Shown here: positions 7,312-18,765 of the stretch, piece by piece | Layout of the letters: each line of letters opens with the position of its first letter | How positions within the stretch are numbered: position 1 is the stretch's first letter | Assembly (NCBI GenBank): GCA_001004345.1 | Contig: LCQW01000006.1 | Span: forward strand, 656 to 64,655 | From: Candidatus Kaiserbacteria bacterium GW2011_GWA2_52_12 | GTDB lineage: Bacteria > Patescibacteriota > Minisyncoccia > Phycocordibacterales > UBA2100 | Direction of reading: 5' to 3' | DNA length: 64,000 bases | Translations under genes and position numbers: made by a program | Notes under the pieces: model-generated | Told to the model about the DNA's origin: nothing | Database searches by the model: none | The model's input: only the letters and a program-made list of their open reading frames with translations

Positions 7312-8112
7312 ATGAAACGAGACAGCTTATATGTATATGAAGATAAGCCGATCGGCGAAGAAGATTTCGTATCGGCTCTCAAGTCCCTTGGAGTATCGTC
7401 CGGCGATACCCTTTTCGTCCACTCGGCCATCGATAAATTCGGTAAAGTCGGACCTGCGTTTGAGGCGCGAGTCCTGTGCGACTCGCTGGTGAGAGCACTG
7501 AAAAAAAGCGTCGGACCAAAAGGAACGCTCGCGATGGCCACGTTCACCTATAAATACTGCGGGACACGTATTTTTGACGTAGACAAAAGTCCGTCCGAAG
7601 TGGGGGCACTGAGCGAGTTTTTTCGCAAACAGCGCCGAACCATCCGCTCACAGCACCCGATCTTCTCAATCGCCGCGACGGGTCCGAAGTCCAGATCGCT
7701 CGTAAAGACCGGCGTCGATGCTTTCGGGGATGATTCGGTCTTCGGTAATGTGCGCAGAGACAATGCGCTTTTAGTATTTCTCGGTACCAACTTTAAATCC
7801 TGCACGCTTGGCCATCACATCACGCAAATGCATCAGGTACCGTACCGATATATGAAAACATTCAGCGGGGTCATCAAGCGGGGTCGTCGCAGTCGCAAGA
7901 TCGATGCCACGTATTTTGTCCGCCCGCTCGACGGCACGATCAAAATCGATCTCTCTGGGCTTGAAAAACGGTTATTCAGGAAAAAACTCCTGAAGAAAGT
8001 GCGTGTGGGCGCAAGTTCGATCGAGTGTGTCCGTGCCCAAGACGTGTTCAATGAGGGAATGAAAATGCTCGATAAGGATATCTATGCGCTTGCCATTCGA
8101 CTGAAGCAATGA
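7312..8112 (+). CDS. AAC(3)-family (Antibiotic_NAT fold) aminoglycoside/aminosugar N-acyltransferase homologue
   Basis: SGDTLFVHSA, ATFTYKY and HHITQMH motifs. It is paralogous to the gene at 8420-9202. Start at the MKRDS ATG (7312). Confidence 0.6.
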   Translation: MKRDSLYVYEDKPIGEEDFVSALKSLGVSSGDTLFVHSAIDKFGKVGPAFEARVLCDSLVRALKKSVGPKGTLAMATFTYKYCGTRIFDVDKSPSEVGALSEFFRKQRRTIRSQHPIFSIAATGPKSRSLVKTGVDAFGDDSVFGNVRRDNALLVFLGTNFKSCTLGHHITQMHQVPYRYMKTFSGVIKRGRRSRKIDATYFVRPLDGTIKIDLSGLEKRLFRKKLLKKVRVGASSIECVRAQDVFNEGMKMLDKDIYALAIRLKQ

Positions 8113-8134
8113 GAATCTCTCTATATGCTGTCAT

Positions 8135-8380
8135 ATGAAAAATGAAGATGTCCACAAAAAGGTCATCGGAGTATTCGCGAAGACATTTCAGATTCCAGAA
8201 CAAAAGGTCACCGAAGATATTGCCTACAATTCATACGAAAAATGGGACTCGCTCGGACACCTTGAGCTCGTGAGCAATCTCGAAAAGGCTTTCGATATAT
8301 CTTTTTCGATGGATGACGTATTGATAATGGGCTCGGTCGCTAAGTGCGAGCAGATAGTCAGGGGTTATTTGCCCATATAG
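8135..8380 (+). CDS. Acyl carrier protein
   Basis: 81-aa protein with a DSLGHLEL phosphopantetheine-attachment serine motif. Confidence 0.8.
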   Translation: MKNEDVHKKVIGVFAKTFQIPEQKVTEDIAYNSYEKWDSLGHLELVSNLEKAFDISFSMDDVLIMGSVAKCEQIVRGYLPI

Positions 8381-8419
8381 CACCGTGGGCAAACCGGTGT
8401 CTTATATCCGGCCGCCAGG

Positions 8420-9202
8420 CTACCCTTCTTGGTACCCGTCGGTCAAGAACAGAGGGTTGGTTTGAATTTTTTTTTCTATGAGGCTATACGTATCACGCGC
8501 GGAGATGGCGACGATCTGTCCGCGGCCGAGGTTTGCCACTTTTGCAATGCCAGAGTCCTTGGCCAGGCTATCAAAAAGCTCGTACGAAGACGCTGATTCG
8601 GGCTTATTCTTATCCGCGACAAAGTGATAAAAGGTCGCACTATATCTCTTTGCGCCGTCGATCACGATTCCTGTAAATGGTTTGTCATACCGATACGGCA
8701 CATGCAAAGACCGTTCTACAAAATGAATAAGTGCTGAGGCGGAGTCGAGATTAAAATTACATATTTTCCCATCCGCAAGGTACAGTCGATCCCAAAAAGA
8801 ATCTTTTCCGAAGGAATACTCGGGCATATTCGCCGTAAACGCTCTCGCCCTACTTCCTATCGCGACGACTGAAAAATTTGCATCAGCCGAACGTATGGCA
8901 TCGGAGTCTTTCCTAGCGCATTCTGAAAGCACGCCCTTGTCGCCGGCCGACTCGGCAACATCAAAATCTTGTTTCCGACAGAAGCTGTACGTAAACGTCG
9001 GGAGGATCCACGTGCCTTCGGACCCTATCACTTCGAACATTGCACGTTTGAACATCTTGTAGAGCGCTTCCGCGGAGGCGGCGCCTTCCGCTCGTCCGAA
9101 AAATCCGATGTTGCTTTGGGTATAAACAACATCTCCTCGTTGGAGTCCAACCGCGATAAGTGCGGTTCGAATATCCGCTTCCGAGTAATCATTTTTTGAC
9201 AT
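8420..9202 (-). CDS. AAC(3)-family N-acyltransferase homologue (second paralogue)
   Basis: GDVVYTQSNIGFFG and PTFTYSF motifs, the same fold as the gene at 7312-8112. Confidence 0.6.
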   Translation of the reverse strand: MSKNDYSEADIRTALIAVGLQRGDVVYTQSNIGFFGRAEGAASAEALYKMFKRAMFEVIGSEGTWILPTFTYSFCRKQDFDVAESAGDKGVLSECARKDSDAIRSADANFSVVAIGSRARAFTANMPEYSFGKDSFWDRLYLADGKICNFNLDSASALIHFVERSLHVPYRYDKPFTGIVIDGAKRYSATFYHFVADKNKPESASSYELFDSLAKDSGIAKVANLGRGQIVAISARDTYSLIEKKIQTNPLFLTDGYQEG

Positions 9203-16542: not shown

Positions 16543-16571
16543 ACTCACTATCCTCGGCAGATAAAAAATAA

Positions 16572-17261
16572 TCAAAGTGCGGTCACTTCCCCCGGTATGG
16601 CAATGGACGACGAGGGTTTATATGCGGCGGCATCGTTACATATGGTTTTGACAACATCTGCAACTGCTTCTGCGTTTGTCATGCCTGCGCCCGTCTTCTT
16701 GGCCAACATCTCAAGAATGGCCTGCGGCACGCCCTCATTCAACCCCCCCGCAATATATCCTGGAGCGACCGCATAGACCCGAATTTCTTTTTTTTCATTA
16801 TTTTGGGCAAGAATACGCAGAAAATTTCGAAGAGCCATCTTGGCGGGAATGTATGAACCCATCGGCATCGGCGTTGTGCCGGACTCGATGAGTTTCGTGG
16901 TGATACCAATAAATGCCGCTCCATTTTTCATATGCGGTAAGGCCGCGGCAGCTAGATTTTGAGCGCCATTGAGGGTAACTCTCATCTGTAAGTCCGACTC
17001 ACTTTTATCCTTACCCATGCTCGCCACCGCTGCATGAATACATGCATCTATTTGACCTGATGTTTGAATAATATTTTCAACAACAGAAGCTACCGCTCTT
17101 TGGTCTGTGATGTCGCATTTGTATATATCGTCGCCGGATTGAGTACTGGAGAGCACGGCGACACGCCAACCACTCTTCTTCAACGTCTTTACTATCGCAC
17201 TGCCAATGTGACCTGTCCCGCCCGTCATTACGGCAAGTGGCGCATTTTTATGCTCGATCAT
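16572..17261 (-). CDS. SDR-family oxidoreductase (ketoreductase, FabG-like)
   Basis: MTGGTGHIGSAIV Rossmann motif and YAVAPGYIAGG. Confidence 0.65.
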   Translation of the reverse strand: MIEHKNAPLAVMTGGTGHIGSAIVKTLKKSGWRVAVLSSTQSGDDIYKCDITDQRAVASVVENIIQTSGQIDACIHAAVASMGKDKSESDLQMRVTLNGAQNLAAAALPHMKNGAAFIGITTKLIESGTTPMPMGSYIPAKMALRNFLRILAQNNEKKEIRVYAVAPGYIAGGLNEGVPQAILEMLAKKTGAGMTNAEAVADVVKTICNDAAAYKPSSSIAIPGEVTAL

Positions 17262-17698
17262 ATGAGAACTTTTGTAAGAACACTGCCCTCTGCGACGATC
17301 TCATCGCCACGTTTTATTACGACACTGATTTCGAGGAGTTGTGCCGCATCAGTTTTGTGCGCGATTGTCCCCGACACGCGTACACTCTGCCCCACGTGAA
17401 CGGGTTTTTTGAATTCCAGGGTTTCTTTTACGAGGAGGCAGTATTTTCCGGGCAGTTGCATGCCAACGAGCCGCGATACAAGTACACCGAGATACATGCC
17501 GTGCACAACTATTTCTTTAAACTGCGTCGTCTTGGCATACGCCGCATCTGTATGCAATTCATTGTGATCGCCGGAAATATCGGCAAATGCTCGTACATCT
17601 TTTGCAGATATCGCGTGCTCAAAAAAAGCGTTTTCACCGACTGTGAACGATGCGTATGTTCTCACCGTTGAAGATCCTCTCATACGATCTTTATCCAT
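17258..17698 (-). CDS. MaoC-like (R)-specific enoyl-ACP/CoA hydratase/dehydratase (hot-dog fold)
   Basis: DHNELHTD and HGMYLGVLVSRLVGMQLPG hot-dog motifs. Length 146 aa. Confidence 0.65.
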   Translation of the reverse strand: MDKDRMRGSSTVRTYASFTVGENAFFEHAISAKDVRAFADISGDHNELHTDAAYAKTTQFKEIVVHGMYLGVLVSRLVGMQLPGKYCLLVKETLEFKKPVHVGQSVRVSGTIAHKTDAAQLLEISVVIKRGDEIVAEGSVLTKVLI

Positions 17699-18765
17699 TC
17701 AGGTCTTTCTATTTTATTGGTAGATATTTTTAGTTCTGCGCCGAATACCCGGTCCACGAACTCTCTCGCTGGTTCGTTCTTCTCGGATTTTTCGAATGTG
17801 ACACTGATCGTTTTTGCACCTGCTTCTGATGCGCGCGATCCGATCTCGGCCATAAACGCATCCTCAATCCCCCGTCCGATGACCCTACAGCTCATAAGTA
17901 ATGACTCAATGTGCCAAAGATCTTTTTCCTTGCGCACAAGCGCAAATGCAATGATCCCATGGTCACCAAACTGATCTACTGCTCTCGCATGGAAAACAGC
18001 ATGATCTTCGGAATCTACGAACTTTTGGATCTCGGCCTCAGTCATCGGACGCTTTTTGACATTGAACTGATTCGTCTTTCCCGTCATTTGAGAGAGACGC
18101 GCAAGTACACTTGCGTCATCTTCAAAAAATTGCAACTCCATATCGAGACTTTTCAAAAAAGAGCCGCGATCTGCGTATTCTTTCTCGGCCGCCTTTCGCA
18201 GACGCTCCGTGACGTACATGTTGCCACGCATTTTATCTTCATCGGTTACGGCGCTTGCGGCGAAATACGGCAGTGAATGCAAAAATTTGACATACCGCGC
18301 CGGATCTTCGGGCATCTCCGGTGTCTCCACTTCCGGCACGAGCATTCGTACACTTTCCCTATTGTGAGGACTATCGTCGAGAAATATCATCGAATCGAGT
18401 CCGATATTGAGTTCTTTGGCCAACTCACGCATATTATCGGCCTTTTCGGCCCAATTAATGCGCATTGCTGCGAAATGACCTTCCTTTAAGATCATGTTGG
18501 GATTTGTCCTGATGACGGCAAGTGCGTCCTCGGGATTATTTTTGCTGTTGATCGCGAGAATAATGCCACGATCGTACAGATCGCGGAGCGCTTGTTGAAA
18601 TGCGATGAAATAGGCGCCGGGAGGAGTGAGCGAAAGCGCTATTCCATCAATGCCGTCTTCTCCCACCACGCCACCCCACAAAGTGTTGTCAAGATCGAGA
18701 ACAATGCACTTTTTCATACAATCTCTGATAGAGGAACACTCTCGACAAGGAGACTCATAGATCAT
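17680..18765 (-). CDS. FkbH-like protein (HAD-superfamily subfamily IIIC; glyceryl-ACP-forming phosphatase/transferase) with a C-terminal GNAT-like domain
   Basis: CIVLDLDNTLWGGVVGEDG matches the FkbH signature. The HAD core is followed by a GNAT-like C-terminus. Confidence 0.65.
   Translation of the reverse strand: MIYESPCRECSSIRDCMKKCIVLDLDNTLWGGVVGEDGIDGIALSLTPPGAYFIAFQQALRDLYDRGIILAINSKNNPEDALAVIRTNPNMILKEGHFAAMRINWAEKADNMRELAKELNIGLDSMIFLDDSPHNRESVRMLVPEVETPEMPEDPARYVKFLHSLPYFAASAVTDEDKMRGNMYVTERLRKAAEKEYADRGSFLKSLDMELQFFEDDASVLARLSQMTGKTNQFNVKKRPMTEAEIQKFVDSEDHAVFHARAVDQFGDHGIIAFALVRKEKDLWHIESLLMSCRVIGRGIEDAFMAEIGSRASEAGAKTISVTFEKSEKNEPAREFVDRVFGAELKISTNKIERPEWIKIV

Follow-up and report, generated by a model that had tools for sequence, protein, structure and literature searches.

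Thirteen closely packed genes, two on the plus and 11 on the minus strand, occupy positions 7312-18765 of a 64-kb stretch of DNA from Candidatus Kaiserbacteria bacterium GW2011_GWA2_52_12 (the window, meaning the whole stretch that was analysed). They include two AAC(3)-fold N-acyltransferases, here called NAT1 and NAT2, and two acyl carrier proteins, ACP1 and ACP2, and they lie next to an operon for a nonulosonic acid. An earlier annotation made from the letters alone, the sequence-only reading, had counted 12 contiguous genes in this range and had seen in them a single pathway that delivers an unusual acyl group to an aminosugar. The ends of the range are exact: 7312 is the ATG of NAT1 and 18765 the minus-strand start of FkbH. 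Gene identities were assigned by Pfam and NCBIfam profile searches of the window products. The genes, together with the one that precedes NAT1, are:

5915-7243, plus: DUF4910/DUF2172/HTH_47 peptidase-like protein (DUF4910 361 bits, DUF2172 140, HTH_47 65), outside 7312-18765
7312-8112, plus: NAT1, AAC(3)-fold N-acyltransferase, cassette A (Antibiotic_NAT 119 bits)
8135-8380, plus: ACP1, carrier of the FkbH cassette (PP-binding 22.8 bits, cutoff 20.8; Ser39 in a DSL motif)
8420-9202, minus: NAT2, AAC(3)-fold N-acyltransferase, cassette B (Antibiotic_NAT 92 bits)
9189-10757, minus: FadD-like adenylate-forming ligase (AMP-binding 235 bits, plus AMP-binding_C)
10754-11740, minus: short M29/NicX-like metalloenzyme (Peptidase_M29 30 bits)
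11744-12127, minus: holo-ACP synthase, AcpS-type phosphopantetheinyl transferase (ACPS 65 bits)
12131-13285, minus: class-I (AspAT-like) aminotransferase (Aminotran_1_2 198 bits; Lys231 in an SLSK motif)
13388-13660, minus: ACP2, carrier of the ligase cassette (PP-binding 28 bits; Ser45 in a DSL motif)
13732-14436, minus: putative vicinal oxygen chelate (VOC)/glyoxalase-fold protein "G9", 234 aa (family profiles)
14502-16304, minus: ABC half-transporter, exporter type (ABC_tran 115 bits, ABC_membrane 28 bits)
16572-17261, minus: FabG-like short-chain dehydrogenase/reductase (SDR), ketoreductase of the FkbH cassette (adh_short_C2 87 bits; Y137xxxK141)
17258-17698, minus: MaoC-type hot-dog dehydratase (MaoC_dehydratas 67 bits; GDHNELH motif)
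17680-18765, minus: short-form FkbH (HAD-IIIC; TIGR01686 305 bits, TIGR01681 81 bits)

The profile searches agree with the sequence-only reading on FkbH, both AAC(3)-fold proteins, both carriers, AcpS, the ligase, the ketoreductase, MaoC, the aminotransferase and the ABC protein; the FkbH-like and AAC(3)-like calls in particular survive the check. Two peptidase-fold proteins had been named in the range. One of them is the M29-like protein, but the 234-aa product is better described as a putative VOC/glyoxalase fold, and the second peptidase-fold protein of the locus is DUF4910, which lies just upstream of the range and had been missed.

The 11 minus-strand genes run from FkbH to NAT2 and converge with DUF4910-NAT1-ACP1, all three on the plus strand and separated by 68 and 22 nt. 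Gene junctions of -19, -14, -4, -4, +3 and +3 nt, among them the 4-nt overlap of the SDR and MaoC genes, indicate operons and translational coupling. Only the SDR and ABC genes stand far apart (267 nt), and a terminator-like hairpin lies in this gap. Against shuffled sequence, terminator-like sites showed a modest enrichment and promoter-like sites none. Catalytic motifs are intact in FkbH, both carriers, MaoC, the SDR and the aminotransferase.

The single pathway of the sequence-only reading comes apart into two units when the carriers are typed across 116 related loci (36 from a NAT1-based scan and 80 metagenome loci for NAT2). In NAT2-type or ligase loci 69 of 74 carriers are of the ACP2 type, with a mean of 63 bits to ACP2 vs 13 to ACP1, and ACP1-type carriers follow FkbH in six loci (L007, L010, L011, L024, L088 and L118). 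This clean split of carrier types argues that the window is a composite of two separable and widespread cassettes rather than one pathway. By gene content, cassette A is FkbH-MaoC-SDR together with ACP1, NAT1 and DUF4910, and cassette B is VOC-ACP2-aminotransferase-AcpS-M29-ligase-NAT2. AcpS and DUF4910 are each present in single copy in the window and are common to both. One further locus, L088, carries both cassette types, like the window.

Both NATs are clear members of Antibiotic_NAT (PF02522), for which the cutoff is 25 bits. Against the NCBIfam families of AAC(3) resistance enzymes (NF033082/NF033081 etc.) NAT1 scores 72 and NAT2 55 bits, where the cutoffs are 270-420. With scores so far below these cutoffs, the name "Aminoglycoside N3'-acetyltransferase" in the public records KKW24554.1, KKW24556.1, OGY85079.1 and OGY85081.1 is unsupported; other entries read "hypothetical". 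A role as aminoglycoside resistance genes was rejected on the four- to fivefold shortfall and on the sugar-locus context. The AlphaFold2 model of NAT2 (pLDDT 95) matched AAC(3)-Xa/IIIa/IVa, YokD, BA2930 and FrbF in Foldseek, with TM scores of 0.75-0.80 at 16-22% identity, and by this model NAT2 has the AAC(3) fold. The His that aligns to the mutated catalytic His of the AAC(3) structures is invariant (His168 in NAT1, His160 in NAT2), as are the VPYR motif in the NAT1 alignment and Glu163 in the NAT2 alignment.

A pattern scan for NAT1 relatives, one genome per species, gave 36 loci, 19 closer and 17 distant; the hidden Markov models (HMMs) for ACP and MaoC were built from short sequences only, with fusion open reading frames (ORFs) excluded. 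The 19 close loci contain ACP in 15, DUF4910 in 13, NeuB in eight, an AMP-ligase in seven, and FkbH and AcpS in six each. The 17 distant relatives, which serve as an internal control, have ACP in one and DUF4910 in two. A string AcpS-FkbH(~600 aa)-ACP-(MaoC)-(SDR)-NAT-DUF4910 recurs in the Candidate Phyla Radiation (CPR), DPANN, Methanosarcinales and other lineages, with members in Nealsonbacteria (L007), Methanosarcinales (L010), Ozemobacteraceae (L011) and Woesearchaeota (L024). The Methanosarcinales locus has the FkbH-ACP-MaoC-SDR-NAT string of the window, MaoC lies between ACP and NAT in L010, L011 and L024, and FkbH adjoins ACP and NAT in eight loci (L007, L010, L011, L015, L024, L037, L088 and L118). 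In some NAT1-type loci an AMP-ligase replaces FkbH. Two Campylobacter species (L017, L022) have PseB-PseC-DUF4910-NAT followed by an SDR, a Rieske oxygenase, beta-ketoacyl-ACP synthase III (KAS III), ACPs, a ligase-ACP and DUF2920, which is the layout of the flagellin glycosylation locus of C. jejuni.

The NAT2 family is larger, with 157 matches at >=42% identity and, in a set of 1.84 billion representatives, 147 clusters at E<=1e-30. Of the 80 metagenome loci, 40 are >=10 kb. All 40 contain an ACP, 37 an AMP-ligase, 36 DUF4910, 31 a PF04199 "cyclase", 29 the VOC-fold protein, 26 an HMGL-like aldolase/synthase, 17 NeuB, 16 AcpS, 11 a class-I aminotransferase, and four each the M29-like protein and an ABC homolog. 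The ACP is directly upstream of, overlaps or is fused to the NAT in 36 of these 40 loci, and it is present in 66 of the 67 NAT2-type loci that have upstream sequence. Four loci (L054, L064, L083 and L093, "variant b") carry the M29-like protein and the aminotransferase without HMGL and cyclase, and this is the version of the ligase cassette that is found in the window. In a Nitrosopumilus metagenome-assembled genome (MAG) the cassette adjoins NeuB and a CMP-transferase. Across the related loci the loader varies between FkbH, a ligase, an aminoacyl-tRNA-synthetase-like protein and KAS III.

Fusions point in the same direction. PP-binding-NAT fusions were found in L069 and P0125 by Pfam and in L014, where the ACP domain was detected by a custom HMM; MaoC-NAT fusions occur in L012 and P0284 (Pfam). 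NAT is fused to DUF4910 in L094, L118 and L120 and, in addition, in all seven long NAT homologs tested (P0155-P0199). L012 also has an ACP-ligase fusion, and in L083 and L093 the aminotransferase is fused C-terminally to the ligase. Through them the AAC(3)-fold enzyme is physically linked with the carrier protein, with thioester chemistry and with DUF4910. The central prediction of the sequence-only reading, a carrier-tethered acyl pathway for sugar N-acylation in which the AAC(3)-like enzymes would be the ACP-to-aminosugar transferases, now has strong support from comparative genomics.

Three related loci deserve mention in their own right. Right behind AcpS and ACP, L021 (3582-5321) encodes a NAT joined to a class-II aminoacyl-tRNA-synthetase-like core; the protein looks like an amino-acid:carrier-protein ligase with its own transferase attached. 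The Nealsonbacteria MAG has a B12-binding radical-SAM enzyme (L007, 6695-8386) between FkbH-ACP and NAT-DUF4910, a hint that glyceryl-ACP is C-methylated or rearranged in this version of the cassette. In the cultivated gammaproteobacterium Oceanospirillum sediminis (L043; JACJFM010000003.1, 6059-12288) the string HMGL-ligase-VOC-cyclase-ACP-NAT-DUF4910 lies between flagellar hook-associated and flagellin genes and adjoins IS66 fragments.

Of all the partners of the AAC(3)-like genes, DUF4910 shows the strongest co-conservation. The protein of the window scores 505 bits over its full length to PDB 3k9t (CA_C2195) and is an ortholog of CA_C2195 and Cj1295; an alternative start, an ATG at 5987, is possible. 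FkbH is above the cutoffs of both families (TIGR01686, 305 bits vs 146.65, profile positions 2-316 of 323; TIGR01681, 81 vs 35.75). It is a short form without the FkbH_N domain and has the motifs D24-L-D26-N-T28 (DxDxT) and S292-C293-R. From OzmB and FkbH, we take the DxDxT motif and Cys293 to be the catalytic and glyceryl-carrying residues.

In cassette B, the best NCBIfam matches of the ligase are acyl-CoA ligase families, all under cutoff. The closest solved relative of the M29-like protein is the dioxygenase NicX (7cn3, E=8e-11), and EFGIG and HLD motifs are retained; a NicX-type dioxygenase was rejected, the residue aligned to NicX His265, which we take to be an iron ligand, being the Glu of the EFGIG motif. 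The VOC-like protein alone gave 19 and 15 bits, under the Pfam cutoffs, and a word-index homology search with it returned two proteins only, so that the family was recovered from the fetched loci instead. Among 25 aligned homologs PF00903 was matched by 14 and PF13669 by 10, the family profile matched glyoxalase I (1f9z) with E=1e-3, and A4, D6, H7, Y27, N38, K42, E67 and E228 are invariant. With homologs in 29 of the 40 loci it is a conserved member of the ligase cassette, and we propose that it may be a thioester epimerase or isomerase. The sequence-only reading had included the ABC exporter in the pathway. With homologs in only four of the 40 loci it is a doubtful member and possibly a flippase for a lipid-linked glycan.

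The acceptor is suggested by the neighbouring genes. A nonulosonic-acid operon lies just upstream of DUF4910 on the opposite strand (514-4430), with NeuB, the CTP_transf_3 protein and the GNAT 1.5-5 kb away:

514-1266, minus: CMP-transferase (CTP_transf_3, 96 bits)
1270-2139, minus: GNAT (67 bits)
2016-2792, minus: MNIO/MbnB-like (DUF692) TIM barrel (PF05114 62 bits; NCBIfam BufB 52 bits, far under cutoff)
2789-3658, minus: nonulosonic-acid synthase NeuB (NeuB 271 bits)
3633-4430, minus: SDR of the acceptor-sugar operon (context gene)

The subtype profiles give NeuB 304 bits to NeuB_NnaB vs 243 to PseI, both under cutoff, and a PseC/ArnB-like DegT aminotransferase is encoded at 28200-29348. 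By this gene content (NeuB, CTP_transf_3, GNAT, DegT) the cassettes sit in a nonulosonic-acid biosynthesis locus. The sequence-only reading had offered either a 4-amino-6-deoxyhexose or a nonulosonic acid as acceptor. The latter is favoured by the adjacent NeuB, CMP-transferase and GNAT genes, by the recurrence of NeuB in related loci and by the precedent in Campylobacter. The MNIO-like gene, inserted between GNAT and NeuB, belongs to a family familiar from the maturation of ribosomally synthesized and post-translationally modified peptides.

Taken together, we consider it reasonably probable that the locus encodes two independent, carrier-protein-based cassettes for N-acyl editing of a 5,7-diamino nonulosonic acid of the pseudaminic (Pse) or legionaminic acid (Leg) type, made by the adjacent NeuB/CMP-transferase operon. 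The donors would be acyl-ACPs and not acyl-CoAs. In cassette A, AcpS would convert apo-ACP1 to holo-ACP1, and FkbH would dephosphorylate a glycolytic C3 unit, 1,3-bisphosphoglycerate, and load the glyceryl group on ACP1. The support for this loading is that ACP1-type carriers adjoin FkbH in eight loci. MaoC may then dehydrate glyceryl-ACP1 to enol-pyruvoyl- or pyruvoyl-ACP1, which the SDR may reduce to lactyl-ACP1, a logic that has been proposed for loading modules with the order dehydratase-ketoreductase-FkbH-ACP (DH-KR-FkbH-ACP). NAT1 would move the C3 hydroxyacyl group to an amine of the nonulosonate. The assignment of this group is tentative: FkbH cassettes vary in their tailoring enzymes, with a B12-radical-SAM enzyme in L007 and none in others, and MaoC also accompanies a ligase cassette (L012).

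DUF4910 would expose or present the sugar amine, and the likeliest route is removal of an N-acetyl group. N5 of Pse and Leg stems from the N-acetyl of UDP-GlcNAc, and replacement of the N5 acyl group requires de-N-acetylation, which would explain the near-obligate pairing of DUF4910 and NAT. In cassette B, the aminotransferase and the FadD-like ligase would make and adenylate an acid, perhaps an amino acid, and the ligase would load it on ACP2. The VOC-fold protein and the M29-like metalloenzyme may tailor or proofread the loaded acyl group, and NAT2 would transfer it to the second amine, perhaps N7.

It is tempting to speculate further that the AAC(3)-fold clade and DUF4910 work as one unit that, in bacteria and archaea alike, serves as a general and hitherto unrecognised machine for the N-acyl editing of nonulosonic acids. 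DUF4910 would strip or present an amine on the (CMP-)sugar, and the NAT would re-acylate this amine from a dedicated acyl- or aminoacyl-carrier protein, charged by one of several interchangeable loaders (FkbH, a FadD-like ligase, an aminoacyl-tRNA-synthetase-like ligase or KAS III). The two cassettes of the window would then make an undescribed, doubly non-acetylated nonulosonate, for example with an N-lactyl or N-glyceroyl and an N-aminoacyl group, and the NATs would be the first acyl-ACP-dependent members of Antibiotic_NAT. This wider proposal is tentative, and we hold it with less than even confidence.

Several observations weigh against the editing of a nonulosonic acid by two cassettes. 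To our knowledge, every characterised Antibiotic_NAT enzyme uses acetyl-CoA and none an acyl-ACP, and the structures of FrbF and BA2930 contain CoA. In the window, ACP2 is 4 kb away from NAT2 and a single DUF4910 would have to serve two NATs. The MaoC protein in L012 accompanies a ligase cassette without FkbH, so the substrate of MaoC need not be glyceryl-ACP. Glycan chemistry for the module is known only from C. jejuni; the organism of the window is uncultured. DUF4910 does not have the catalytic residues of conventional metallopeptidases, with Zn modelled at the site in the CA_C2195 structure (PMC4000134). In C. jejuni 11168, finally, the Cj1296/7 tract is out of frame in both variants, and the dimethylglyceroyl sugar is made whenever Cj1295 is on (Hitchen et al. 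2010, Table 1). A sugar made with Cj1296/7 out of frame means that DUF4910 could itself be a transamidase, or that another transferase is at work.

Some of these points are what would be expected if the NATs were ordinary acetyl-CoA-dependent sugar N-acetyltransferases, in the role of PseH or LegH, and the ACP-borne acyl group were delivered by another enzyme: by DUF4910 as a mono-zinc transamidase, by the C-terminal transferase half of FkbH or by the M29-like protein. All solved or characterised members of Antibiotic_NAT indeed use acetyl-CoA, dimethylglyceroyl-Pse is made despite the out-of-frame Cj1296/7, Cj1295 is the gene that counts, and the clan of DUF4910 includes acyl-transfer enzymes of the glutaminyl cyclase type. 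However, the PP-binding-NAT fusions and the ACP upstream of or overlapping the NAT (36 of 40) are hard to square with a CoA-dependent enzyme, and the MaoC-NAT and NAT-aminoacyl-tRNA-synthetase-like fusions link the NAT to thioester and aminoacyl chemistry. Distant NAT relatives without DUF4910 are also without ACP, and the operon already has an acetylating GNAT, so that NAT1 and NAT2 are not needed for plain N-acetylation. We therefore regard simple acetylation by the NATs as unlikely.

The acyl group could also end up elsewhere, on GDP-4-amino-4,6-dideoxyhexose from the neighbouring gmd and DegT genes, or on a hydroxyl by O-acylation. The cluster is indeed flanked by a true gmd, scoring 419 bits where the cutoff is 415, and by genes for WavE, a sugar C-methyltransferase and a DegT aminotransferase, and NeuB is within 10 kb in only 17 of the 40 and eight of the 19 related loci. 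It is NeuB, CTP_transf_3 and PseC-like DegT, and not gmd homologs, that recur with the cassettes, and in Campylobacter DUF4910-NAT lies directly behind pseB-pseC. The sole chemistry tied to the module is N5-acyl-Pse, and the AAC(3) fold is an N-acyltransferase fold; a different acceptor thus appears quite improbable. Least convincing is a small-molecule cluster that has no part in the glycan and whose product, for instance a lipo-amino acid or an N-acyl amino acid, leaves through the ABC protein. ACP, ligase, aminotransferase, FkbH and ABC exporter are typical parts of natural-product clusters, and two of the four "variant b" loci have an ABC homolog. But the cluster has no ketosynthase, condensation domain or thioesterase, the ABC homolog is as rare as stated above among the 40 loci, and in diverse phyla the cassettes are found inside loci for nonulosonates or for flagellin glycosylation. 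We give this explanation hardly any weight, and continue to favour N-acyl editing of a nonulosonic acid.

Regarding the product, the sequence-only reading had suggested an aminomalonyl- or tetronate-like group, for which there is no specific support. FkbH and ACP are present without genes of the FkbI, FkbK or FkbG type, which led us to reject methoxymalonyl- and aminomalonyl-ACP, and a tetronate as in Vibrio cholerae was rejected for want of a LuxC-type reductase. A Pfam search at E<=0.01 gave no match to a BtrH-type acyltransferase or a gamma-glutamyl cyclotransferase among the 13 products, and no SAM O-methyltransferase is encoded within 5915-18765; the one methyltransferase gene in the vicinity, at 20875-22242, is of the sugar C-methyltransferase type.

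The nearest characterised relative is Cj1295-Cj1308 of C. jejuni NCTC 11168, the product of which is CMP-Pse5(2,3-di-O-methylglyceroyl)7Ac. Both loci have DUF4910 (Cj1295), an adjacent AAC(3)-like gene (Cj1296/7), carriers, an FkbH-domain gene (Cj1302) and an AMP-ligase, in C. jejuni beside pseB/pseC. Unlike the C. jejuni locus, the window lacks flagellin, maf, DUF2920, an O-methyltransferase and KAS III, and it has MaoC and the SDR with FkbH and, in addition, another full cassette of the ligase type that includes a NAT. Cj1295 was found to be required for 5-N-(2,3-di-O-methylglyceroyl)-Pse, Pse5(di-O-methylglyceroyl)7Ac (Hitchen et al. 2010), and the de-N-acetylation proposed here for DUF4910 matches the hypothesis put forward there for Cj1295. 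In Clostridium acetobutylicum the neighbours of CA_C2195 are CA_C2197 ("aminosugar N-acetyltransferase"), the ACP CA_C2198, CA_C2199 and NeuB (Das et al. 2014, PMC4000134). CA_C2199, listed as "N-acetyltransferase + HAD phosphatase", is FkbH-like; the ligase/VOC/M29 cassette is absent from that neighbourhood. The authors assigned only a generic role in modified carbohydrates and no carrier-dependent transfer to the AAC(3)-fold enzyme. The gene set thus has precedents: attention was drawn to its core around CA_C2195 in 2014, and genetic work in C. jejuni connects this core with di-O-methylglyceroyl-Pse. The genetic basis of the N-glyceroyl group on Pse5Am7Gra of Tannerella has been called "a major challenge" (Friedrich et al. 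2017). In the literature covered, which left many subscription papers outside, we found no biochemical study of Cj1296-Cj1303, of AAC(3)-like Pse/Leg enzymes or of ACP-dependent nonulosonate acylation.

Parts of the pathway are known from elsewhere. With the FkbH/OzmB loaders, FkbH of the window shares a score above the family cutoff, DxDxT and the conserved Cys, and a dedicated ACP. With DH-KR-FkbH-ACP loading modules of the lactate type ("1,3-bpg + ACP -> D-lactate-ACP"), among them BryA of bryostatin, it shares the accompanying dehydratase and ketoreductase. Unlike these polyketide synthase systems, the window has no polyketide synthase, no dehydrogenases of the FkbI/FkbK/FkbG type and no O-methyltransferase; its dehydratase is a free MaoC hot-dog protein, and the proposed destination of the product is the amine of a sugar. 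Fold, catalytic His and the VPYR region are common to the NATs and AAC(3)-IIIa/IVa/Xa, YokD, BA2930 and FrbF, but the NATs are found in sugar loci, fused or adjacent to carriers and DUF4910, and are proposed to use acyl-ACP as donor. Carrier-held acyl groups are moved to aminosugar nitrogens by LpxD, in butirosin biosynthesis (BtrI/J/K/H/G) and in the formation of the tetronate of V. cholerae O1 (RfbK-O). The logic, a dedicated carrier and then the aminosugar nitrogen, is the same, but the transferase folds differ, a left-handed beta-helix in LpxD and a BtrH-type enzyme in butirosin vs AAC(3) in the window. By Pfam, none of the 13 products is of the BtrH, LuxC or left-handed beta-helix (LbH) type.

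The entire window is a region of glycan synthesis, with GT4 glycosyltransferases, an AT3-SGNH O-acetyltransferase, gmd, a sugar C-methyltransferase, a carbamoyltransferase and three PMT_2/GT-C genes (29407-30858, 31439-33190 and 52580-54124). There are no flagellar genes within the 64 kb, and Rfam and tRNA scans of the window returned nothing, neither tRNA nor rRNA. Next to FkbH lies a second sugar pathway (18831-22242) with WavE, the true GDP-mannose 4,6-dehydratase mentioned above (gmd) and a sugar/NDP-hexose C-methyltransferase (20875-22242). An O-carbamoyltransferase is encoded at 23521-25170, and its homologs also adjoin NAT/DUF4910 in L012 and L037. The minus strand further carries an AbiEii-domain toxin-like gene with an overlapping upstream ORF of 191 aa (25478-26756), a toxin-antitoxin-like pair that is kept in sister contigs. 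Amid the glycan genes, at 35420-40895 on the same strand, are a 1023-aa AAA_5 (dynein/McrB-like) ATPase and an overlapping 839-aa transglutaminase-core protein, and 55188-57065 (minus) is an apparent fusion of a UDP-glucose/GDP-mannose dehydrogenase-like N terminus and a GT1-family glycosyltransferase.

The Capsule_synth (KpsS/C-like) ORF at 4468-6231 (minus) has been called too long. It overlaps DUF4910 in antisense over its first ~111 codons and probably starts near 5898, from where the two genes diverge. Matches antisense to DUF4910 in related loci are an artefact of the over-long ORF; a retest with the C-terminal part left genuine homologs in six loci only, and the gene was rejected as a core member of the module. 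Such genuine homologs adjoin DUF4910 in L045, L072 and L009 but in few others. Proteins identical to those of the locus are found in CPR genomes of the Parcubacteria group from Rifle groundwater, namely Candidatus Kerfeldbacteria RIFCSPLOWO2_01_FULL and Candidatus Kaiserbacteria.

The locus is a new composite form of a widespread, biochemically uncharacterised module that had already drawn notice. Pseudaminic, legionaminic and other nonulosonic acids are found on flagella, S-layers, capsules and lipopolysaccharide, where the N-acyl groups influence charge, recognition by phages and contacts with the immune system. Few of the enzymes that add N-acyl groups other than acetyl are known, and the locus together with its 116 relatives offers a concrete set of enzymes and a modular rule: DUF4910, an AAC(3)-fold NAT, a dedicated ACP and a variable loader. 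A systematic misannotation also becomes apparent, in that such NATs may well be miscounted as resistance genes in metagenomes. A CPR bacterium with a reduced genome would devote ~13 genes to customising one surface sugar. Should the NATs indeed draw on acyl-ACPs, this would be a new activity of the AAC(3) fold that extends Antibiotic_NAT to a further class of donors, and the module would be a general means of diversifying the N-acyl groups of nonulosonic acids.

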